Shown piece by piece: positions 4,836 to 38,402 of a stretch of DNA of 64,000 nt (the stretch's first letter is position 1; the number at the start of each line of letters is the position of its first letter). The translations under genes were made by a program, and so were the position numbers. The DNA lies in IMG/VR virus record IMGVR_UViG_3300009514_000888, positions 1 through 64,000 of that record. The stretch is one strand, 5' to 3'. A model generated the notes under the pieces. That model was not told the origin of the DNA and ran no database searches. It saw nothing but the letters and a program-made list of their open reading frames with translations. The DNA comes from a virus.

Positions 4836-5198
4836 ATGCCCTATGATATTGAGTATATTCGGGAGTCTGTTGGTGAGCTAAAGCGGCAAACACAGAGTTG
4901 GATGCCCATCCTTAAGGGAACAGAGAAAATCATATGCTGCGCCGAAATGGCAGGAATTGATGTCTCAGAGATACGGGGACTCCGTCATACGGCTATTGCT
5001 GACTTGCGAATCATACTTCGTAAAATTGAATTCCTCGAAAAAGATATGCTTTTTGCAGACGAATGGGATGAGGATGATTTTCATCTCTTTGGGGAACGAT
5101 TCATTGACTTCCAAGAATACGTTTGCTACGAAACGGATAGTTTCAAGAATCTTAGTGATAAAATGGATCAAATTCTCCAGCAATCGAGGGAAGAGTGA
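4836..5198 (+). CDS. hypothetical protein
   Basis: ORF with GGGAGA RBS. Confidence 0.6.
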   Translation: MPYDIEYIRESVGELKRQTQSWMPILKGTEKIICCAEMAGIDVSEIRGLRHTAIADLRIILRKIEFLEKDMLFADEWDEDDFHLFGERFIDFQEYVCYETDSFKNLSDKMDQILQQSREE

Positions 5199-5512
5199 TA
5201 TACTCCGAGGAACAGGCTCAAATTTGGGATGAGATCATCGATGCCGACCCCAAGATTCCCAAATTCTTCAAAAACTCAGAGCATGGCAGGGAATTGTGTC
5301 GAGCCTGGATATTTATGGGACAAAACCTTATTGAACGCGCCGGATATACTAGGGCAGAGGTCGCGGCTTTCGGTCGCCGGTTCTGCATGAAACACTTGGC
5401 CAGGCGATCCCCGATAGACGAGATATGGGATGCTGCCGAATCCCATGTTGAAGAATTGTGCCAAACGCCAGACGAAGAATCGAATATAAGGGGTCAACAT
5501 GAAATCTCGTAG
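5195..5512 (+). CDS. hypothetical protein
   Basis: ORF overlapping the upstream stop (GTGA). Confidence 0.55.
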   Translation: MIYSEEQAQIWDEIIDADPKIPKFFKNSEHGRELCRAWIFMGQNLIERAGYTRAEVAAFGRRFCMKHLARRSPIDEIWDAAESHVEELCQTPDEESNIRGQHEIS

Positions 5513-6029
5513 TTGGCATTTTGTGGACAAATCCGCTTGGGGCGATGGCCCTTGGCAGGATGAGCCTGACAAGAAACAGTGGGTAGACCAAGAGACTCAT
5601 CTGCCCTGTCTGATAGTGCGATCTAGGGTGACGGGATCGCTTTGCGGCTATGTGGGCGTTCCTGCTTCGCATCCGTGGTATGGCAAGTCTTATAATGACA
5701 TTCACCAGGAATATGAGGTAACGGTTCATGGCGGGTTGACCTTTGCGGGGACATGCGATGGCGAGCCTCGTGGTGTCTGTCATATCGTGGAAGATGGGGA
5801 AGATGACAATGTTTGGTGGGTTGGATTTGATTGCGCTCATGCCTGGGACTTAACCCCGTCGTCTGTAGCGATCATGCGAGCGATATATGACGCCAAGGGC
5901 GAGTTCTATCATCGCCGAATAGATGACATATACCGAGACGAAACATACGTAGCTGACTGTATTCGGTTATTGGCTGCGCAAGCGAAAGGCGCAGAGAAGG
6001 AAGAGGAAGATCGAAGCGCCATGTACTAG
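5499..6029 (+). CDS. phage hypothetical protein (CGYV..HP, HGGLTF, GFDCAH motifs)
   Basis: Motif pattern recurrent in uncharacterised phage proteins. Confidence 0.7.
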   Translation: MKSRSWHFVDKSAWGDGPWQDEPDKKQWVDQETHLPCLIVRSRVTGSLCGYVGVPASHPWYGKSYNDIHQEYEVTVHGGLTFAGTCDGEPRGVCHIVEDGEDDNVWWVGFDCAHAWDLTPSSVAIMRAIYDAKGEFYHRRIDDIYRDETYVADCIRLLAAQAKGAEKEEEDRSAMY

Positions 6030-6031
6030 GC

Positions 6032-6775
6032 ATGGCGTTTAAGCATCTTATCCTTGCGCTCGGACGGTCTGGCAGTACCACGTTGATGGAAGCGGTAAAC
6101 TGTCATCCGGATGCCTATCTTCTATCAGAGCCATTTAATAAACAGTGGGGCAAATTTTCGCATGTCAAATCTGTTTCAGGTATTGATGCCGCGATCCATA
6201 GTATGCAAGTATTCACTGGGTTTAAGCATACGATGGGAAATACCGCGTCATTTGATAGCGATGGCGTGATTTATCATCACATCTTGAATCATCATCCTCG
6301 CGTTATTTTACTGACGAGAGACAATATGTTGCGCCGGGCCGTATCCATGTCGATGTCTGCGCAAACTCAGGTATGGCATGTCAATCGGCAGCCCGATGCC
6401 AGAGAGAGGATATCTCAGTTTGAATTTCAACCTTTATGGGCGAATTATATCGAAAAGATTCTGCGAACGTCTGTTCTGTGGGTAGAGGCATGCGAAGCAT
6501 ATTTGAGGGAACATGGTATTATTTATCGCAAAATGACGTATGAAAATTTGATGGGCGAAGATGTTCTGGTGGGGTTGCGCATTAAGCGTTTTATGCGTGT
6601 TCTAAAGACCCTGGGATTGAGCAGGGATCATCCGAAATTCAATCCATCGAAGCTGGAAGTTATCTTGTCTCCAAAAAATAAGTTGAATTCCAGGGAAGTA
6701 TATAGGAGAGTTCCTAATATAGACGAAATAGAAGAGGTGTTTGGTAGCCCCGAAAATGGCTACTTGTTCCGATAA
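6032..6775 (+). CDS. sulfotransferase-family protein (Stf0/NodH-like)
   Basis: N-terminal PAPS-binding GRSGSTTL, LLSEPF and ILLTRDN..RAVS motifs. Confidence 0.75.
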   Translation: MAFKHLILALGRSGSTTLMEAVNCHPDAYLLSEPFNKQWGKFSHVKSVSGIDAAIHSMQVFTGFKHTMGNTASFDSDGVIYHHILNHHPRVILLTRDNMLRRAVSMSMSAQTQVWHVNRQPDARERISQFEFQPLWANYIEKILRTSVLWVEACEAYLREHGIIYRKMTYENLMGEDVLVGLRIKRFMRVLKTLGLSRDHPKFNPSKLEVILSPKNKLNSREVYRRVPNIDEIEEVFGSPENGYLFR

Positions 6776-8223: not shown

Positions 8224-8934
8224 ATGGCTAAAGATATCATGGAAATGTTGGACGATCAATCATTGGATCGGCTGACAGGGGAAATCATGGATGCAATTCG
8301 AGAACAACCCGAAGGCTCTCGTTGGGATTCCGAATTCGGCATTTCCAAGGGAAAAATGCAAAGCTCAGGGACGAATACGTGGTTCATGTTTGATGTGGAA
8401 GATCAATCGTATTTGCGAGAATTCATTGCGGCCCTTTATGGACGAGAGATGGAGGAAGACGAGAATCAGAAGATCAGCGAATTTGTGAATAGACTCTCTT
8501 ATAATATAATAGATGATATCGTCATGCTTCGAGAACAAATTCGCCAGTCGGTGATGCCGGATTCTGATGTCAAAATTTTCCCTCTAGACAAAATTGTCAT
8601 TGATGTTATTGATATTGTTGATTTCTCATCGGTGCCAGAAGACGGCAAGTATTTGACCAGATGGCGCAAGATTCCTGGGTTCTCAGTGGACATGCCTCGG
8701 GTCATGGAATTTGTGGCAGATGTACAGGAAACCGACCACGATTTGACAGTTCAAGACATAGTGGAGAGAGAGCAGCTTAAGGGGAATCAGCTGTTTGATG
8801 GCGTGATTTCTGCGGATCGCGGAACTAAGTATCTGTATGATGTTACGCTTTCGTTCTTTGTAGACTACTCTCCGGCGTCTCCTGAGGAAATTCTGGCGGC
8901 GATAGAAGGAGAAAAGAACAAAAAGAACGAATAA
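8224..8934 (+). CDS. hypothetical protein
   Basis: Acidic 236-aa ORF with AAAGGAG RBS. Confidence 0.7.
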   Translation: MAKDIMEMLDDQSLDRLTGEIMDAIREQPEGSRWDSEFGISKGKMQSSGTNTWFMFDVEDQSYLREFIAALYGREMEEDENQKISEFVNRLSYNIIDDIVMLREQIRQSVMPDSDVKIFPLDKIVIDVIDIVDFSSVPEDGKYLTRWRKIPGFSVDMPRVMEFVADVQETDHDLTVQDIVEREQLKGNQLFDGVISADRGTKYLYDVTLSFFVDYSPASPEEILAAIEGEKNKKNE

Positions 8935-23210: not shown

Positions 23211-23313
23211 GACCTATTTACAACTTGGCTTCGAATACTCGGCCTGCTATCCGCCTGGGGCGGGGTCCGTCTGCAAAACGGATGCAATAAGGGTTCGAAT
23301 CCCTGGTGGGTCT
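23211..23313 (+). tRNA. tRNA-Cys(GCA)-like with ambiguous or expanded 5'/D region
   Basis: Anticodon arm TCCGT-CTGCAAA-ACGGA; T arm AGGG-TTCGAAT-CCCT; 3' GTGGGTC pairs with GACCTAT (23211), or more weakly with the strand near 23242; U73. Confidence 0.6.
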
Positions 23314-23362
23314 ATGAAACTCCAGCGATCTTTGACAAGTAAATATTCTAGTTATGACAGAT

Positions 23363-23438
23363 GCCCGGCTGCCCGAGTCTGGACAAAGGGAGCGGACTGC
23401 AACTCCGCTAATCGTGGGTTCAAATCCCACGCCGGGCT
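23363..23438 (+). tRNA. tRNA-Cys(GCA)
   Basis: GCCCGGC/GCCGGGC acceptor, GCGGA-CTGCAAC-TCCGC anticodon arm, GTGGG-TTCAAAT-CCCAC T arm, U73. Confidence 0.92.
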
Positions 23439-23647
23439 ATATGAAAGCGCACAGGAAAGAGTTCGGCGTATCATCTGGATACATTCGACAATGTAACGCT
23501 ACTGATCGAAGCATTTGATGATCTGGATGACGCCGTAGACTTCGTGGTTCATAACAGATACAAGGATCGCATCTCCGCGAGGGACTGATTAGGTGTATCT
23601 CGTTGATCGGGACGGAAACATCGTTAAGAAGTATTCGGTGAAATAGC

Positions 23648-23732
23648 GGAGAGCAAATCGTCGAGGCGACGACCCCGCTTCGAAAACGGGTGGAGCCTAA
23701 CAAGGCTTGCGGGTCAGGACCGCTGCTCTCCT
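23648..23732 (+). tRNA. tRNA-Ser(CGA), atypical T loop
   Basis: GGAGAGC/GCTCTCC acceptor, loop TTCGAAA, long variable arm, T arm GCGG-GTCAGGA-CCGC. Confidence 0.7.
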
Positions 23733-23738
23733 TTTGAT

Positions 23739-23829
23739 GGAAGATAGGCGACTGTTGGTTCGTCGCGATAGTTTTGAAAACTGTTCCGCATGAAAGATGG
23801 CGGCAAGGGTTCGATTCCCTTATCTTCCT
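23739..23829 (+). tRNA. tRNA-Ser(TGA)
   Basis: GGAAGAT/ATCTTCC acceptor, loop TTTGAAA, long variable arm, AAGGG-TTCGATT-CCCTT T arm. Confidence 0.85.
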
Positions 23830-24512
23830 GTCCCCAGTTTGGAATTGATGATATTTATGATGATGTCTAGGAACTTTTGTGCTTTTTGAGGCTTGAAATA
23901 CTTCATGCTAGAAATGTCGATGATGCAGAGTTCGATTTGGTTTTCTAGACATGCTTGGAATTTGCGATGGTCATTGTTGCGAACTTGAGACAGTTTTTCT
24001 TTCCAAAAATAGGTTCATAATGGAAGATGCCATTAAGCTCAAAGGCCAGGAACATGCTGGGAATGAATATGTCTAACTCGGAGTTAATATGTTCTTTTTC
24101 GTTGAAACGAATATCGAGGTTTGGGTATTTGGCTTTTAGTTTCTCTTCTATCCATGCCTCGATCTTGGACCGTCGATGACCATGCTTGCGGTTACGGTTG
24201 TTATAACTGCCTGAGCAAGACCTGCTGCAAAAATGGTTTCCGCTTTTGGACTTGGCGAGCTTAGATGGTGTGCGATCAAAAGATTTGCTGCATTCAGTGC
24301 ATGAGACTGTTACTCTATTTTGCCGAAACTTATCTCTGCATTTAATAGAGCAAAAGCGGTTGGAAGCGTTTTGAGATTTTGGATTGTTGTCACAGGACAG
24401 ATTTACAGTGAAATGGTTATTACAATAGGAGCAGGTTCGGGTAATCATGGTTGGCATACATAGCAATTCGACCAGTATGCTTAAAAACCTTTTTCGATTC
24501 CCTTATCTTCCT
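23810..24512. repeat. 20-bp direct repeat TTCGATTCCCTTATCTTCCT (23810-23829 and 24493-24512) flanking the endonuclease gene
   Basis: Exact duplication of the tRNA-Ser(TGA) 3' end. Confidence 0.9.
23820..24466 (-). pseudogene. zinc-finger plus PD-(D/E)xK (Vsr/DUF559-like) homing-endonuclease-like gene, frameshifted near 23994-24002
   Basis: CxxC...FCSxxC repeats and ELDIFIP..AFELNGIFHYEPIFG. The alternative frame continues KLSQVRNNDHRKFQACLENQIELCIID...GTGR* to a TAA at 23822-23820. Confidence 0.7.
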
Positions 24513-24514
24513 TT

Positions 24515-24607
24515 GGACAGGTAGCGATCCCCGCGGGAGGCTGTAACCCTCTTGCCATGATAATTAGCGGGGTGGTCGGCATAGGGGTTCGATTCCTCCG
24601 CTGCCTA
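24515..24607 (+). tRNA. degenerate tRNA-Tyr(GTA)-like
   Basis: GGAGG-CTGTAAC-CCTCT anticodon arm, GGGG-TTCGATT-CCTC T arm, very short D loop, imperfect acceptor. Confidence 0.5.
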
Positions 24608-24623
24608 TTATGGGTGCTAAATT

Positions 24624-25115
24624 ATGAGTGAAGACCAAAACAAATATGCTGTGCCTATTAAGGCCGACGATATCCTTTGGAACATCCACGCCAAGCCTGT
24701 CAAGGTTGGCACCACCCCGCCCATCGGCGTAAAGCTCGAATGGGGCTGGACAGCAGGCAAGACAGAGGAAGAACTGGCAAGCTATGCCCATGATGCGCCA
24801 ACGGGCAGCGCGTCAGTCACAACAACGCTAGACTTGGCGATTGAGTTGAGAAATAAACTGAACAAGATCATCAAGGAGTATAATGTAGAGCCGGTTGACC
24901 AATGCGATAGATGTAAGGAAGAGATTTTCCCTTACGAAGAATCGGAAGATACCGCAGGGGGGACGGTTCACACAGACCAGGAGAGATGCGATCAGTTGAA
25001 GAAACTGAATGAGTCGAGCGCGAAACTGCAAAAGTTGTTTGAAGAACATCCAGAACTGTTGAATCTACAACCAGAGATAGGGACAGAAGAGGAAGAGGAG
25101 AGTCCGTTTGATTGA
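24624..25115 (+). CDS. hypothetical protein
   Basis: 163-aa ORF. Confidence 0.65.
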   Translation: MSEDQNKYAVPIKADDILWNIHAKPVKVGTTPPIGVKLEWGWTAGKTEEELASYAHDAPTGSASVTTTLDLAIELRNKLNKIIKEYNVEPVDQCDRCKEEIFPYEESEDTAGGTVHTDQERCDQLKKLNESSAKLQKLFEEHPELLNLQPEIGTEEEEESPFD

Positions 25116-25500
25116 CATAGGACATAGAACAAAGGAAGCAGTCATGATTCCAGCAATTGGCAAAAGCACTTTGCTCGGTTTTCGGTATCAACTGGTTGGC
25201 TTTCTTTTCATGGACAACCCGATGAATTGTCACGGCAAGGTCGAAGTTACTTTTTTTAAGCAAGACAGTAGCAGTGACTTGTACTTGATTTGCCTTAGTG
25301 AAGTCACGAAAGATCAAGCCAAGACATATGCGGAGATTCTGAAAAATAAGTTGGGAGAGATGGTTGCGGCCGAAGAAGTAATTCCGTATGTTCAGCGCAG
25401 TTTGGGAGACGTGGAGTATGAGGCTTTTCAGGGCTTGATGGAAGCATCTTTCGCTTTGAAAATAGAATGGAGTAGCCCGACTGCCAGCAAAGATAGGTAA
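25108..25500 (+). CDS. hypothetical protein (start may be ATG 25145)
   Basis: ORF with AAGGA RBS. Confidence 0.55.
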   Translation: MIDIGHRTKEAVMIPAIGKSTLLGFRYQLVGFLFMDNPMNCHGKVEVTFFKQDSSSDLYLICLSEVTKDQAKTYAEILKNKLGEMVAAEEVIPYVQRSLGDVEYEAFQGLMEASFALKIEWSSPTASKDR

Positions 25501-25576
25501 TGTTGAAAACATAGCAGCCTATTGACGAGCAGGCATCGTTTTCTCTGTATGCTAAAGCATTGGGAAGGCTTTCTCG

Positions 25577-25999
25577 ATGACGACGTTCCAGATTAACGGG
25601 CAAACGATTGAGTTCGATGAGACTCTTTCTTATGCCGATTTTTGGGTCGATGGATCAAGTTATGTGTTTGCTTGGATTCAATGGGACAAAATACTCACGG
25701 CATTATCAGAGGGCAGAGAATGGGACGCAGGAATACGCAGGTTTGTTAAATTGCTTTCCAGATGGGTTCACGAGGCTCCCAGGAAGCGTGTCTATCGCGG
25801 CTTGAAGATGTCTGGCGTAACGGTGGTGAGCTCTGAATTTTTCTTTGAGCAGCAGGGAGGGGATGAGATGATTAACTCACTGGAAAACACTGGCAAATTT
25901 GCGGTTAGGCTCCTGGAGGTTTACGACGAGAGTCCAATGGAACCGATAAAACATGAAGGGAGAAACCCGATTCGCGTAGATCAATTAAAGATAGAATAG
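25577..25999 (+). CDS. hypothetical protein
   Basis: 140-aa ORF ending at the first base of the tRNA. Confidence 0.6.
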   Translation: MTTFQINGQTIEFDETLSYADFWVDGSSYVFAWIQWDKILTALSEGREWDAGIRRFVKLLSRWVHEAPRKRVYRGLKMSGVTVVSSEFFFEQQGGDEMINSLENTGKFAVRLLEVYDESPMEPIKHEGRNPIRVDQLKIE

Positions 26000-26089
26000 G
26001 ACAGGTGGCCGAGTGGCTGAAGGCAACGGTTTGCTAAACCGTCGTAGGGGGTATTCCTCCTACCGCGGGTTCGAATCCCGCCCTGTCCG
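25999..26089 (+). tRNA. tRNA-Ser(GCT)
   Basis: GGACAGG/CCTGTCC acceptor, ACGGT-TTGCTAA-ACCGT anticodon arm, long variable arm, GCGGG-TTCGAAT-CCCGC T arm, G73. Confidence 0.95.
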
Positions 26090-26115
26090 TTGTCCAGGAA
26101 GCGCATAATATTTTC

Positions 26116-26382
26116 ATGCCAGAAAAAGAAAGGCAACCTCCCCTGAACGACGGCGACCTGTTCCGAGTGTCAGCTCGGCGCAATGGGAAATGGAATGCAT
26201 ACGTTGGTCGCGTTATTAGCAAAGCAGAGCAGACATTTGAGACTGTTTGGATGACTGACTTCGTCTATGATACGGAAGCAGAAGCCGAGCAGGCTATAGA
26301 AGACGCAGTCAACAAGGCGCGGGCGAAAGAATGGGGTTGGAATGACAATATAACCGGGAAGGTTGATCAAGACGGAGAGTAA
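26116..26382 (+). CDS. hypothetical protein
   Basis: ORF in the + strand run. Confidence 0.5.
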   Translation: MPEKERQPPLNDGDLFRVSARRNGKWNAYVGRVISKAEQTFETVWMTDFVYDTEAEAEQAIEDAVNKARAKEWGWNDNITGKVDQDGE

Positions 26383-26724
26383 ACTAGCGAGGCGCTAGCT
26401 CCGGTTGGAAGCCGGATGGAGCTGAAATACGCTTACGGATCGTGACCGTTGCTCTCCTTTTTCATTACTTTTGGACAGGATATGGCCATGATGAAAGAAG
26501 AAGATATCCAAACCGCTGACGATCTTCTGTCCTACATTCTTGAGTTTCAGGATGTGATATATGTGCGAGAGCAAGTCAATGGGAAATGGGGATCGTTTAG
26601 CCTGGAAGAGCTGCCTGATGATTTGCGTCAGAATCATGTGAATAGATTTTTGGACGAAGGGCGCATTCCTTTTCGGCTCAAGCGAGACGCTGAGCAATCA
26701 GGCGATTAATACTCCGGCATTCTG

Positions 26725-32929: not shown

Positions 32930-34531
32930 GTGAATATGACCCAGACAACCGCACTCGACCAGCCGCATGCCCTTGCGTTTTACCACGAAGGCAAGGTCCG
33001 CGTTCATCCTGACGCATCCCAGGATGTCAAGAGCGCGGTTCTTACCTTTATTGACACTGTGCTGACGGCCAGCGGACAGGCGACGTATTACAACACCAAG
33101 AAAGAGCAGTATCGCGCGCTCTACGAGGTTCATGATGCGATTTTTCGCGTCAATCGCGGACTGTATGGCGCGATGCTGTGTCTGCCTGGCATCATGGACA
33201 AGAGCCGTCAAATTGGTTTTACCAAGCTCCTGGAAGATAACAGTGAGGGCAGGGAAGCATCGTTCTTAACCCCAGAACAGGAAAATTGGGTTATTGCCTA
33301 TCTGTCCAGAAATATTAGACCCAGCGCGCTGTTCCGGCAGTTCGTGGAAATTCGCAATAAGAGGGTGAATAACAGCCGCGTGCGCAAGTTCATTTTTGGC
33401 GCGATCCTGCCGAGTAATTCGCTGCCGCTTTGGTCGGTCAAGTATCGATCCAAGGTTCGCGCTGCGCTAGAACATGCTTGGAGCCGGCAAATGGCTTCTG
33501 CGATTCGTTGTATTCTGAGCAAACCTGCCCAGTCGAGAACAGATAAGGAAAGGTCCATCCTTGATAAGAACATTGATCGCTGGGTACGGCGCGGCAATAG
33601 CGAGCTGACCCCCGACGAGGTTTATCAGTGTATTTGCTTTGTTTTGGGCGGGAAGATGGGTAGCAAGTATACCGTCAAACTGTTGATGCAGCGGCTTGAT
33701 GCCCGAGAGAGCCTGGACAAGGGCAAGGACTTACCGCCGGAAGTCCTGGAAGGCATTCGAAGTCGCTATCACAAGGATGCTGCTAAGGGCGCGGTCTTGG
33801 CGGTCACTAAGGATACGATGACCAATACCCAGAAGCGCCGCGTACAGCGCTCGGCCAAGGAAGCGAATGTTGATGTTAAAATGGACCCGCTCAAGCAGGA
33901 CATTATTCCGCTGTATGTTTACGCGCTTGAAATGGGGATGACTCGCGAAATCTTCCAGGCCCTCGACACGAAGGCTCGCAAAATCGCGCAGACAATCCCT
34001 GTTCGATATAGGCGCGTCGGCATTGTGGTGGATAACTCCGAGTCGATGTTCGGCACGGATCAGGCGAAGCGCAAGCCGTTGGCTATCGCCCTGGCTATGC
34101 GAGACATCCTTGCGGCGTCCGCGACAGAATATGCCTTCGCCATCCCATCGCAGGGACAGTTCGATGACTTCGGCATGACAACGTCGCGCGGCGACACGAG
34201 TCTTGCCGAGCCTCTGATTCGAGTAATCGAGGAAGGGGTTGATGCGGTCTACCTGATTACTGATGGATACGAGAACAGTCCGGCAGGCAGGACCGGCGAA
34301 GTTATTGAACGTTTGAGGGAAATCGGCATTGAGGTTCCTATCTTCCAGGTGTCGCCTGTTGTGTCCGTCGAGGCGGCAGGTATTCGTGCGCTTTCGGATC
34401 GTGTCGCTCCGATGCCGGTTGCGAACCCAGCAGGCATCGGCTTGTCGATGATTCGAGCAACGATTACGAGCGATGTCGAGACGGGCATCGAAGCGCTTTT
34501 GGAAACCACGCGACCGCTACTGGAGGGTTAA
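32930..34531 (+). CDS. Ro60/TROVE-like protein (helical N-terminal region plus C-terminal vWA)
   Basis: 533 aa; vWA MIDAS-like IVVDNSESM, T(S)LAEP and YLITDGYEN at Ro60-like positions; basic helical N-terminal two thirds; a Y-RNA-like array lies downstream. Confidence 0.55.
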   Translation: MNMTQTTALDQPHALAFYHEGKVRVHPDASQDVKSAVLTFIDTVLTASGQATYYNTKKEQYRALYEVHDAIFRVNRGLYGAMLCLPGIMDKSRQIGFTKLLEDNSEGREASFLTPEQENWVIAYLSRNIRPSALFRQFVEIRNKRVNNSRVRKFIFGAILPSNSLPLWSVKYRSKVRAALEHAWSRQMASAIRCILSKPAQSRTDKERSILDKNIDRWVRRGNSELTPDEVYQCICFVLGGKMGSKYTVKLLMQRLDARESLDKGKDLPPEVLEGIRSRYHKDAAKGAVLAVTKDTMTNTQKRRVQRSAKEANVDVKMDPLKQDIIPLYVYALEMGMTREIFQALDTKARKIAQTIPVRYRRVGIVVDNSESMFGTDQAKRKPLAIALAMRDILAASATEYAFAIPSQGQFDDFGMTTSRGDTSLAEPLIRVIEEGVDAVYLITDGYENSPAGRTGEVIERLREIGIEVPIFQVSPVVSVEAAGIRALSDRVAPMPVANPAGIGLSMIRATITSDVETGIEALLETTRPLLEG

Positions 34532-34535
34532 GGTT

Positions 34536-35567
34536 ATGGCTATGGCGAATATCAGCGTAGGCGAACTTTTGCACGGCTGTGTGCCTGGCCGGATTCAGTC
34601 TGTAGGCTACATGCAGGTCATCCCTCTTATCTCTGGTATTGAGGATGAGCGTTTCGTGTCTCCGAGACGGGCGAAGGTTTCGACCACGACATACGGCACA
34701 CTTGTTTTCGACAACACCGAAAACAAGGAGGTTATTGTCCCGGCTCAGGCGGCTTATATTGTTAAGCAGGCAGCGCAGGACCATGCGATGACGACGGTTG
34801 GGCTGGTTCCCAAGAAGAAGACGATATCGTTCAATACGGCAGCATGTATCCAGCAGACTCAGGGTGGAACTATTTACTCTGACGAGCATGAGATGATTAT
34901 CTTGCCGGTCGAATTGCGCAATGATGCCCACCAAGTCCGCAAGAAGCTGGGCTACGAAAAACTGTGGCCTGCCATTAACGCTATGAATGAGAGGTATGGC
35001 GTTAGCCGCGGATATGGCGCGCAGGGGCATTTGGAATACTTCATGGATGCGTTCAAGACTCAACTGGATTGCTTCGTCGCCGAGTTTGAGCCTGTTCCTA
35101 AACAGGTCGGCGCGATTGTGTTGGTTGGCGGCAGGGTCGTTGGCATTGAACGCACCCCGAACGAGGAATATTGGCGAGACATCTGGCGCACCTTGATCAG
35201 GGAGTGCTATGGGTCGCTGGCGATTCTTGAACAGCGAAAACATGCCACGAAGGCTCCTCCAGTCCCCAAGACCCGAGAGGCTTTGCCCAAGGCAACCGAT
35301 CTGTCGGACCTCAAGACGAAACTCCGGCAGACCCAGGACCGAGAGTATTCTAATGTGAAAACCATCGTGGAGAACGTTGCGGCACTGAAGCTTGATCGGT
35401 CAACGGACGCCACCAGCGGCTCGTTTGTGGTCGATGCGGTAGAGGGCGACTCTTTCGTAGGCCAGGTGGTTGTAGACGGCGAGAAGATTGTGTACGCTTC
35501 TCTCGTCGCTCGCGGATCGCAGGCCAAGAATGAGGATTGGTTCCTGGGTAAACGGTTTGCGATGTAA
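34536..35567 (+). CDS. ARPP-1/DUF6569-like protein
   Basis: MQVIPL, AQDHA and ACIQQTQGG pattern; start is ATG 34536 or the next ATG. Confidence 0.5.
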   Translation: MAMANISVGELLHGCVPGRIQSVGYMQVIPLISGIEDERFVSPRRAKVSTTTYGTLVFDNTENKEVIVPAQAAYIVKQAAQDHAMTTVGLVPKKKTISFNTAACIQQTQGGTIYSDEHEMIILPVELRNDAHQVRKKLGYEKLWPAINAMNERYGVSRGYGAQGHLEYFMDAFKTQLDCFVAEFEPVPKQVGAIVLVGGRVVGIERTPNEEYWRDIWRTLIRECYGSLAILEQRKHATKAPPVPKTREALPKATDLSDLKTKLRQTQDREYSNVKTIVENVAALKLDRSTDATSGSFVVDAVEGDSFVGQVVVDGEKIVYASLVARGSQAKNEDWFLGKRFAM

Positions 35568-35582
35568 AATTGCCCCCGGTAG

Positions 35583-35619
35583 CTCCTCCTGGCGGCTTCG
35601 GTCGCTAGGGGGAGTTTTT
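35583..35619 (+). terminator. intrinsic terminator
   Basis: CTCCTCCTGGCG-GCTTCGGT-CGCTAGGGGGAG followed by a T run. Confidence 0.75.
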
Positions 35620-35667: not shown

Positions 35668-35695
35668 TTGACATTAAAGGTTCGGACGTTACTAT
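35668..35695 (+). promoter_or_regulatory. sigma70-like promoter upstream of the ncRNA array
   Basis: TTGACA-16 nt-TACTAT, ending about 15 nt before ncRNA unit 1. Confidence 0.65.
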
Positions 35696-35709: not shown

Positions 35710-35773
35710 CTGGGGACTTGAACGTCAATACCGCGATCTTCGGATAGTTGGCATGACCTTTAACCTACCCCAG
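35710..35773 (+). ncRNA. Y-RNA-like unit 1 (small insert)
   Basis: CTGGGG/CCCCAG terminal stem; GGACTTGAACGTCAATACCG ... TTTAACCTACC. Confidence 0.6.
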
Positions 35774-35845: not shown

Positions 35846-35948
35846 CTACTAACAGAGGGTGGGGTCAGGACTTTCGCGTCAATTCCGTGATTAGACAATT
35901 TCACACCCTTTGACCCGCCCCCTACCTGATCCTATCCCCTGTTAGTAG
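35846..35948 (+). ncRNA. Y-RNA-like unit 2 (hairpin insert)
   Basis: CTACTAACAG/CTGTTAGTAG stem; GGACTTTCGCGTCAATTCCG ... TTTGACCCGCCCCCTACC. Confidence 0.65.
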
Positions 35949-35953
35949 AACAT

Positions 35954-36105
35954 AAACGGGAACTCTTGCGTCAATACCGAGTAGGCATTATAAACCCCAG
36001 GATACGGGTTCGAATCCCGTTCGGCGCTTTGCGTAGTTTAGTACGCGCCGATAGCTCAATTGGCAGAGCAGGAATCTCAACGTTGACCCAAACCTTATCC
36101 CGTTT
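35954..36105 (+). ncRNA. Y-RNA-like unit 3, YrlA-like (permuted tRNA-like insert)
   Basis: AAACGGGA/TCCCGTTT stem; conserved core; order is T arm, loop-closed acceptor stem (TCGGCGC/GCGCCGA), D arm. Confidence 0.75.
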
Positions 36106-36115
36106 TTTAATACTG

Positions 36116-36268
36116 ACCGCCGGAAGCGAATAGATAGGACTCGCGCGTTAATACCGTGACATAGCTCAATGGTAGAGCAACACCCCTAAAGGTGCGATTG
36201 AAGGTTCAAACCCTTCTGTCTCAACAGAACTTAACCCGCAACCTACCTATCTATTTCCTTCCGGCGGT
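36116..36268 (+). ncRNA. Y-RNA-like unit 4 (complete tRNA-like insert, 6-nt CCUAAA loop)
   Basis: ACCGCCGGAAG/CTTCCGGCGGT and ATAGATAGG/CCTATCTAT stems; conserved core; insert has GCTC/GAGC D arm, CACC/GGTG arm and GAAGG-TTCAAAC-CCTTC T arm. Confidence 0.7.
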
Positions 36269-36310
36269 TTTTTAATGCGCAGAAAAATCTATTAATTAGT
36301 TACATAGTGT

Positions 36311-36440
36311 ACCGTGGGAAGCACGGAAACAAACGCTCGTGGAGACTGCTTAAGGTTCATGCTCGTTTTACGAGCAGGGGTACTCCAACGACAAGATTCT
36401 CCGGCGAAAATGCCGACTGCATCATATGATGTAGGCAACC
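36311..36440 (+). ncRNA. orphan TnpB omega-RNA-like structured RNA
   Basis: CCGTG-GGAAG-CACGG hairpin, A-rich linker, ACGCTCGTGGAG...CTCCAACGA long stem, possible GGGAA/TTCTC pseudoknot. Confidence 0.45.
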
Positions 36441-36442
36441 AT

Positions 36443-36515
36443 GGCCGCGTAGCTCAGCGGAAGAGCAAAGCGTCTCTAAAACGCTAGGTCCAGGGTTCGA
36501 GTCCCTGCGCGGCTT
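36443..36515 (+). tRNA. amber suppressor tRNA (anticodon CTA)
   Basis: GGCCGCG/CGCGGCT acceptor, GCTC/GAGC D stem, AGCGT-CTCTAAA-ACGCT anticodon arm (CTA at 36476-36478), CAGGG-TTCGAGT-CCCTG T arm. Confidence 0.85.
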
Positions 36516-38039: not shown

Positions 38040-38402
38040 ATGGGATTCTCGTAGGTTGACAATTCGGTTTCGTATCTTTACGTTATCACACGTAGGGACT
38101 TGCCATTTCCTGTCTGCGCCGTTCAGGCGTGTCATGCCGCAATCGAAGCGGCCAGGTTCATTCCCCCATAGGTAGAGCATCCTCATCTCGTTTTGTGCGC
38201 CGTCAGAGATGAGGAGCGACTTGAACGCGCAGCTGAGAAGCTGGAGCGTAAGGGTATCCGTCTGCGCCGATGGCGAGAGCCGGATATCGATCAGTTAACC
38301 GCAATTGCGACAGAGCCTATTTCAGGCGATGCGCGTCGTTACTTCAAAGACTTCCAACTTCTTAAAGGAGACCACGATGGCTACGCTCACACAGTATCGT
38401 AA
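38040..38402 (+). CDS. Pth2-like peptidyl-tRNA hydrolase with two in-frame TAG codons (38052-38054, 38169-38171)
   Basis: AAGGAG RBS then MGFS*VDNSVSYLYVITRRDLPFPVCAVQACHAAIEAARFIPP*VEHPHLVLCAV...REPDIDQLTAIATEPI; the Pth2-family motifs lie on both sides of the second amber. Confidence 0.75.

Follow-up and report, generated by a model that had tools for sequence, protein, structure and literature searches.

The window considered here is the first 64 kb (64,000 nucleotides) of IMG/VR virus record IMGVR_UViG_3300009514_000888, which is 186 kb long. CheckV rates the record as 39% complete, so that it represents a fragment of a very large phage. The window carries a gene for a Ro60-like protein, an ARPP-1 family gene whose ATG lies 4 nt past the Ro-like stop codon (a tightly coupled pair), and an array of handle RNAs behind one candidate promoter. 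Unit 4, the subject of this report, is the fourth and last RNA of this array and is located 1.6 kb downstream of the Ro-like gene, on the same strand. The features of the locus are as follows; R1 denotes a covariance model that is introduced below.

32930..34531, + strand: gene for a Ro60-like protein of 533 aa, modelled as a helical TROVE-type ring plus vWA domain (AF2 model, Foldseek, VIA)
34536..35567, + strand: ARPP-1 family gene, 343 aa (PF20208, 100.8 bits)
35581..35616, + strand: terminator-like hairpin 3' of the ARPP gene (terminator scan)
35668..35695, + strand: sigma-70-like candidate promoter ahead of the RNA array, TTGACA, 16 nt, TACTAT (matches at 10 of 12 positions)
35710..35773, + strand: unit 1, handle with a short hairpin cargo (R1, 32.5 bits)
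35849..35945, + strand: unit 2, handle whose short cargo is unstructured or a hairpin (handle comparison)
35954..36105, + strand: unit 3, handle carrying a permuted tRNA mimic of YrlA type, with a T6 run behind it (R1, 29.1 bits)
36115..36269, + strand: unit 4, detailed below
36443..36515, + strand: tRNA with anticodon CUA, of amber-suppressor type, outside unit 4 (Rfam, 58.6 bits; ARAGORN)

The TTGACA/TACTAT pair is treated as a candidate promoter, a consensus match alone being no proof of function. In unit 3 the cargo is arranged in the order T arm, closed acceptor, D arm; it scores 33.5 bits with the Rfam YrlA model, short of the 69 bits of the gathering score. A run of six T (36103-36108) immediately follows the outer stem of this unit, and transcription of the array may therefore partly terminate between units 3 and 4. 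The 165-nt non-coding stretch from the terminator of unit 4 to the CUA tRNA (36276-36442) had no Rfam match at E values up to 10. The remaining tRNA-type genes of the 186-kb record form one cluster at 23241-26458 of the window: two are Cys(GCA) and the others Ser, and of these five genes three are under the Rfam tRNA threshold.

The Ro-like protein had no match in Pfam, TROVE included, and a profile of its family found no Ro60 among the PDB sequences; with these searches blank, the relationship to Ro60 is visible by fold comparison only. Searching 50,697 GenBank phage records with the protein by tblastn retrieved only one uncultured 462-kb phage, and blastn of the locus against GenBank phages gave no match. 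More than 120 relatives of the protein were found, and a DxSxS MIDAS motif (D368, S370, S372) is invariant in 30 sequences. The AF2 model has a pLDDT of 90. The top Foldseek matches of this model are all Ro60/Rsr proteins (frog, human, Deinococcus and Thermus phage phiLo) and extend over the whole length, with E values of 4e-7 to 1e-3. VIA aligns 406 residues with 1yvr (Z 19.1, rmsd 4.5 Å), and its next class of matches is well below Ro60 and covers the vWA domain only. When the protein is compared with the Ro60/TROVE family, the sequence-level signature is thus absent, and the helical-repeat ring and the vWA/MIDAS domain are present in the model. The whole-length fold match together with the MIDAS motif indicates that the protein is a very diverged Ro60-type ring with a vWA/MIDAS domain.

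Of 81 viral loci, 79 have the ARPP gene adjoining the Ro-like gene, and the remaining two are truncated by the contig end. ARPP, with its conserved Cys and Gln residues, is predicted to be an enzyme, for which ribose moieties have been proposed as the target; the contexts given for it do not include pairing with a Ro-type protein (PMC9503650). Complex prediction for the two window proteins gave an ipSAE of 0.65, compared with 0.12 for the best control; this mark is reached by 58 of 80 solved complexes and by 2 of 110 mismatched pairs, a calibration that is rough, custom alignments having been used. At least 93% of contacts are common to the runs, and the partner pLDDT is at least 81. The predicted interface brings MIDAS residues 370-372 and a vWA face (420-467) together with ARPP residues 178-188, a stretch that holds the invariant F180, F184 and E185 and that comes to lie beside the MIDAS serines. 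The prediction supports binding of ARPP to the Ro-like protein and, if true, would give a Ro60-type MIDAS site a protein ligand.

In unit 4 (36115-36269), a cloverleaf sits on a handle composed of a 23-bp outer stem, an internal loop and a bulged inner helix of 7 bp. The parts of unit 4 are:

36115..36138, + strand: outer stem, 5' strand, pairing with 36246-36269 (12 + 11 bp)
36139..36154, + strand: handle core, 5' side, with internal loop ACUCGC, inner-helix strand GCGUUAA and junction UAC
36145-36151 with 36231-36239, + strand: inner helix, GCGUUAA with UUAAC-CC-GC (coordinates checked)
36155..36224, + strand: cargo, a cloverleaf in normal order (Rfam tRNA, ARAGORN)
36155-36161 with 36217-36223, + strand: acceptor, 5 of 7 pairs formed, C1.A72 and U3.U70 mismatched
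36164-36178, + strand: D arm (coordinates checked)
36185..36190, + strand: anticodon-like loop CCUAAA, 6 nt, on the 4-bp stem CACC/GGUG (ARAGORN, Rfam alignment)
36200-36216, + strand: T arm (coordinates checked)
36225..36245, + strand: handle core, 3' side, with tail CAGAAC, inner-helix strand UUAAC-CC-GC and internal loop AACCUA
36246..36273, + strand: outer stem, 3' strand, and U-run (36268-36273), a likely intrinsic terminator

The A at 36224, which precedes the tail CAGAAC, is counted in the cargo, and the conserved GGACU straddles the border between outer stem and internal loop. The 3' strand of the outer stem and the U-run are likely to form the intrinsic terminator of the array, as judged from their sequence; the terminator scan missed it because the enclosed 'loop' exceeds the size rule of the scan. 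The fold has a z-score of -6.84 against 200 shuffles. The comparative structure lies 6.3 kcal/mol above the computed minimum free energy, a gap that is unremarkable for a multi-branched RNA that has tertiary contacts.

The cargo scores 46.5 bits with the Rfam tRNA model RF00005 at 36155-36224 (gathering score 29; E 9e-7, whole window), and ARAGORN calls a tRNA at 36155-36225 with a 2-base anticodon, which equals a 6-nt loop. All nucleotides of the tRNA elbow and tertiary contacts are present: U8, A14, G18G19, A21, A15:U48, G53-C61 and the T loop UUCAAAC. The arms run acceptor, D, anticodon, T, acceptor, which bears out the original prediction of a complete cloverleaf mounted by its acceptor end on a clamp, in normal order, unlike YrlA. 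Unit 4 had no match with the Rfam YrlA model (RF02553) at E values up to 10, so that it lacks both the score and the permuted order of that family. The expectation that the insert is no ordinary tRNA also holds: the score is that of RF00005, and yet the 7-nt loop with U33 and the 7-bp acceptor with CCA are both missing. Two acceptor pairs are mismatched, ACAG in place of CCA stands directly past the acceptor, and both ends run on into the handle. An extra A after the D stem had been reported as shared with the neighbouring amber tRNA. This feature depends on the register chosen, since the segment can alternatively be drawn as a 5-position stem whose first pair is A.C.

The anticodon-like arm reads CACCCCUAAAGGUG in the assembled sequence across 36181-36194, and the 6-nt loop CCUAAA that had been predicted is present in it. 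A search of viral and metagenome contigs with a gapped exact pattern around this loop gave no match. It could be supposed that the short loop arose from an error of assembly or sequencing in the C-run (ACCCCU) and that the true loop has 7 nt, for example CCCUAAA with the triplet CUA. A run of four C does abut the loop, and 59 of the 63 full-length copies of the class described below have 7-nt loops. The other four have 6 nt and stem from four separate metagenome assemblies; besides unit 4 these are the loops CUUCAA (L007 and L015, on different stems) and AUUCUA (L021), all three in contexts without homopolymers. Four-base runs are not error-prone in short-read assemblies, and position 33 would be C, not U, even in a 7-nt loop. 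The error is accordingly rated as very improbable. A 6-nt loop, CUUUAA, is also present in a permuted unit of L003. As short loops recur in the class and one was modelled in the Y RNA Yrn1 of Deinococcus radiodurans, the loop is best regarded as a tolerated minority state of a non-decoding mimic. It is a rare variant and not the key feature of unit 4.

The handle is conserved beyond unit 4. A 5' motif, GGACU..GCGUYAAUNCCG, and a 3' motif, UURAC-CC..AACCUACC, are common to the four window units and to the units of the two closest IMG/VR loci, and the spacing between motif and outer stem is identical across all of these. The central GUYA/URAC pairing covaries in 10 of 10 units (window, L002 and L003). 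Covariation was also measured in 21 handle-mounted cloverleaves, taken from different phages and aligned independently with MAFFT; the consensus comprises the outer stem and inner helix of the handle and the D, anticodon and T arms of the cargo. Compensatory changes were found in 26 of 30 pairs, and 89.2% of pairing cells are paired, compared with 64.4% in shuffles. The covariation score was 0.682, against 0.215 for shuffled alignments, none of 500 of which reached this value, and 0.11-0.19 when the pairing partners were slid. Both parts of the molecule contribute: in the handle, the outer stem covaries in 7 of 8 pairs and the inner bulged helix in 8 of 8, and in the cargo, compensatory changes occur in 5 of 5 pairs of the anticodon stem and in 4 of 5 of the T stem.

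As a Y RNA, unit 4 shows the location near a Ro60-type gene on the same strand and the paired ends with a bulged helix. The canonical Ro-binding motif (GGUCCGA or GNCGAAN0-1G) is absent from all four window units; the 5' strand of unit 4, GGACUCGCGCGUUAAUACCG, holds neither form. With a handle of this kind, it is gene linkage and analogy with known particles that point to docking on the Ro-like protein.

R1, the covariance model of handle plus normal-order cloverleaf, was built from the 21-sequence alignment, unit 4 being in the seed. It identified 63 full-length copies, which score 59-129 bits and lie in 62 non-redundant phage loci with the Ro-like/ARPP pair. All 63 copies are on the strand of the Ro-like gene, and 42 are outside the seed. 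Unit 4 itself scores 108.9 bits across model positions 1-162, a value that is partly due to its membership of the seed. On the 186-kb home record R1 finds unit 4 only, in addition to weak, handle-borne matches to units 1 and 3. (Classification of handle-mounted tRNAs by the energy of the flank duplex was tried and was dropped in favour of the covariance model; that energy is unreliable because neighbouring GC-rich tRNAs in dense arrays pair together.) The normal-order, acceptor-mounted cloverleaf is the commonest cargo type of the family, and the other recurrent type is the permuted YrlA-like layout seen in unit 3. The check in relatives that the original prediction had suggested has thereby been carried out, and it returned the same layout in 63 copies and 6-nt loops in three further loci. 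With 63 copies in the family, the mounting found in unit 4 is no oddity of one phage.

The nearest relative, L087, has a Ro-like protein of 58% identity, the same gene order and the same CUA tRNA past the array. Its syntenic terminal unit has the same long outer stem, handle and U-run and contains no tRNA cargo, so that the cargo of unit 4 is either dispensable or recently acquired. This comparison, together with the defective acceptor stem and anticodon loop of unit 4, would fit a decaying and functionless tRNA pseudogene that came to lie by chance inside the terminator hairpin of the array. Such an origin is nevertheless rated as extremely improbable, in view of the 63 copies of the same cargo type, which are kept across Ro-like proteins of 25-58% identity and show compensatory changes in their stems.

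Several further observations were made in the related loci. The tRNA mimic in the first array unit of L087 (7872-8030) is permuted and includes an anticodon-like arm, with the loop CUUGAAA; its acceptor hairpin loop opens with ACCA, and the permuted-tmRNA model gives a weak match of 28.8 bits (threshold 47). In a distant clade (L033-L082), a tRNA(CAU) is located directly past the handle-mounted mimic in nearly every locus, e.g. at 2634-2708 of L043, and its flanks do not pair. The tRNA(CAU) at 67-145 of L008 has three G-C pairs at the base of the anticodon stem, a mark of initiator tRNAs. Position 1-72 is unpaired in about one third of the non-handle tRNAs of the distant-clade loci. Downstream of the ARPP gene of L007, two tRNA-like genes (6144-6220 and 6233-6307) have 8-nt anticodon loops, the anticodon given by ARAGORN being the four-base GGGA. 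In L008, from a 192-kb phage, 28 tRNA genes surround the Ro-like/ARPP pair, and the ARPP homologue (5003-6055) contains one in-frame stop codon, for which recoding or a broken gene is possible.

The cargoes differ from true tRNAs as a class. A full 7-bp acceptor was found in 2 of 49 cargoes; the corresponding figure for the ordinary tRNAs of the same loci is 68 of 108. A further 14 cargoes were not called tRNAs by ARAGORN. Position 1-72 is unpaired in about half of the cargoes. [quoted passage not shown] The anticodon positions hold 28 different triplets in 59 cargoes. A34 is present in 12 of the 59; in bacterial tRNAs, A34 is essentially confined to tRNA-Arg(ACG). Leu- and Ser-type triplets occur in cargoes that have no long variable arm. 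Near-identical bodies can carry differing triplets: the group with anticodon stem UCGGU/ACCGA and acceptor ACAAUGA holds UGC, AGU, UGA and UAU. These are the features of an RNA whose shape is maintained and whose loop is either unconstrained or under diversifying pressure; they are not those of a decoder.

The main rival reading takes the cloverleaf as a caged pre-tRNA, in which the handle would be a leader/trailer duplex, RNase P and a 3' nuclease would free a tRNA or tRNA-like RNA, and the Ro-like protein would act as chaperone or gate. The junction between inner helix and acceptor is indeed single-stranded on both sides (UAC and ACAGAAC), as in a pre-tRNA, and ACC or ACCA stands directly past the acceptor stem in 12 of 63 relatives, which fits processing. 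In vivo, YrlA of Mycobacterium smegmatis is a substrate of RNase P and has CCA added (PMC4201824). Were RNase P to nick unit 4 at the 5' end of its mimic, the cargo would not be freed, because 31 bp of handle would still join the pieces. The mismatched acceptor, absent CCA and 6-nt loop of unit 4 are difficult to reconcile with release of a tRNA, as are, in the class, the scarcity of full acceptors and the frequency of A34 and of Leu/Ser-type triplets without a long variable arm. Covarying handle helices and conserved loop motifs would not be expected of disposable flanks. On balance the caged pre-tRNA is considered unlikely, and a non-decoding mimic is preferred. Handle RNAs of this type are readily annotated as tRNAs in the genomes of large phages; tRNA counts are then inflated, and suppressor or odd-anticodon tRNAs can be suggested that do not decode.

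The loop of unit 4 is one base shorter than that of the neighbouring tRNA at 36443-36515, as the original prediction had it: the latter has CUCUAAA, and CCUAAA equals CUCUAAA minus U33. The special tie to the amber suppressor that had been proposed from this likeness did not hold up. The cargo of unit 4 is 59% identical to the amber tRNA, 55-61% to the other window tRNAs and 60-68% to class members, and its derivation as a recent copy of the amber tRNA was rejected, this identity not being above that of unrelated window tRNAs. Stop anticodons, present in 9 of 59 cargoes, appeared to be enriched against a uniform expectation (p 0.0016); the effect disappears against the position-specific composition (expected 0.14, p 0.45), the A/U-rich loops of the class predicting the observed stop-triplet frequency. 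Several of the cargoes with stop anticodons are, moreover, close relatives of one another. In L087 the CUA tRNA is kept in a syntenic copy (8434-8504) and the cargo is missing. Based on these three checks (identity, stop-triplet frequency and the terminal unit of L087), the likeness of CCUAAA and CUCUAAA is treated as a coincidence. The roles raised in the original prediction, namely anticodon-nuclease decoy, ribosome A-site ligand and antagonist, are conjectural, the sequence analysis speaking neither for nor against them.

A PTH2-type peptidyl-tRNA hydrolase ORF was noticed at 38040-38402 of the window (+ strand; PF01981, 26.7 bits, cut-off 23), which is open only with readthrough of two in-frame TAG (codons 5 and 44). 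The amber-suppressor-type tRNA is located 1.5 kb upstream of it; elsewhere in this phage TAG serves as an ordinary stop. Global reassignment of TAG was considered and rejected, since 39 of 178 long ORFs end in TAG. In a more speculative reading, the cloverleaves would be exchangeable 'bait', each phage tuning the fast-changing anticodon loop either to a given tRNA or to a host weapon directed at tRNAs, such as an anticodon nuclease or a defence enzyme that modifies tRNA, and the Ro-like/ARPP particle would capture, block or disarm the enzyme or the damaged tRNA. In the present phage, the U33-less loop C-CUA-AA would then be an uncleavable stand-in that shields the amber suppressor needed by the PTH2-like gene with its two in-frame TAG. 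This reading is doubtful.

The closest known counterparts of unit 4 are the YrlA Y RNAs bound by Rsr/Ro60 (RF02553; PMC4201824). These, too, are non-coding RNAs beside a Ro60-type gene on the same strand, several Y RNAs per locus can come from one precursor, the paired ends form the protein-binding stem, and a tRNA mimic with D and T arms makes elbow contacts (PMC4201824). YrlA differs in that it is permuted, the Ro stem replacing the anticodon arm, whereas unit 4 keeps the normal order, is mounted by its acceptor and has an anticodon arm. It differs also in its GNCGAAN0-1G motif, absent from unit 4, and in its partner, which is Rsr/Ro60 and not a protein without TROVE sequence signature. The published model of Yrn1 of D. 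radiodurans is likewise a cloverleaf, in which a loop of 6 nt closes a 5-bp 'anticodon arm' (PMC4201824); Yrn1 has no full D arm or variable arm and carries a canonical Ro-binding helix, while unit 4 has all four arms. Yrn1 tethers Rsr to PNPase (PMC4201824), and the constant partner in the present family is ARPP-1. From an ordinary tRNA (RF00005), with which it shares the cloverleaf, the conserved tertiary-contact nucleotides and a score above the Rfam threshold, unit 4 is set apart by a loop without U33, by the lack of free ends and by its embedding in a separately conserved handle of 31 bp.

Two other phage systems can be compared. The Ro60 of Thermus phage phiLo (PDB 9KOP, 9L5Y) also combines a ring with a vWA domain and adjoins RNA genes, Yrl1 and Yrl2; its structural match to the window protein has a Z of 15.7. 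The phiLo RNAs have a CGAA motif and no tRNA-like cloverleaf, and an ARPP partner is not reported in the available part of their description (PMC12135203). In phage Bas63, the Ro60-like protein gp130 is encoded upstream of genes annotated as tRNAs and counters the ppl defence system, and the authors guess that some of the adjoining 'tRNAs' are Y RNAs (PhageMaP preprint, PMC11482910). At the sensitivity of the GenBank-phage tblastn, gp130 is no close relative of the window protein. In the full-text literature on Ro60 or Y RNA with phage, anticodon or ARPP, no description was found of this protein family, of the ARPP pairing or of Y RNAs with an acceptor-mounted cloverleaf. The unit 4 family thus appears to be an undescribed, widespread branch of Ro60/Y-RNA particles with tRNA-mimic RNAs.

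The preferred reading, to which a probability of about 0.7 is assigned, is that unit 4 is a non-decoding scaffold RNA of Y-RNA type with a tRNA-mimic effector module, and the last cistron of an array that serves the particle encoded next to it. The paired ends would form the handle, made up of the outer stem, the GGACU internal loop, the bulged GUYAA/UURAC helix and the 3' loop AACCUAC. By linkage and by analogy with Ro60/Y-RNA particles (PMC4201824; PMC12135203), this handle would dock on the diverged Ro60-like ring, on whose vWA metal site ARPP-1 may sit. The L-shaped tRNA mimic would be held by its acceptor end, with elbow and anticodon arm directed away from the protein. The mimic, itself non-decoding, would most likely be an effector module that recruits a tRNA-recognising factor, such as a host or phage enzyme, a nuclease or a repair protein, to the Ro-like/ARPP complex; alternatively, it may occupy the factor's own tRNA site. 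The long outer stem and the U-run would in addition terminate the array transcript.

The family bears on two questions of the Ro60 field, namely the role of the tRNA-like modules that bacterial Y RNAs carry (PMC4201824) and the ligand of the Ro60 MIDAS. It presents a second wiring of a tRNA mimic to a Ro-type handle, in which the cloverleaf is complete and the anticodon arm is free. It also offers anticodon positions that change almost freely within an otherwise conserved RNA, and a constant enzyme-like partner, ARPP-1, which is predicted to sit on the MIDAS site.
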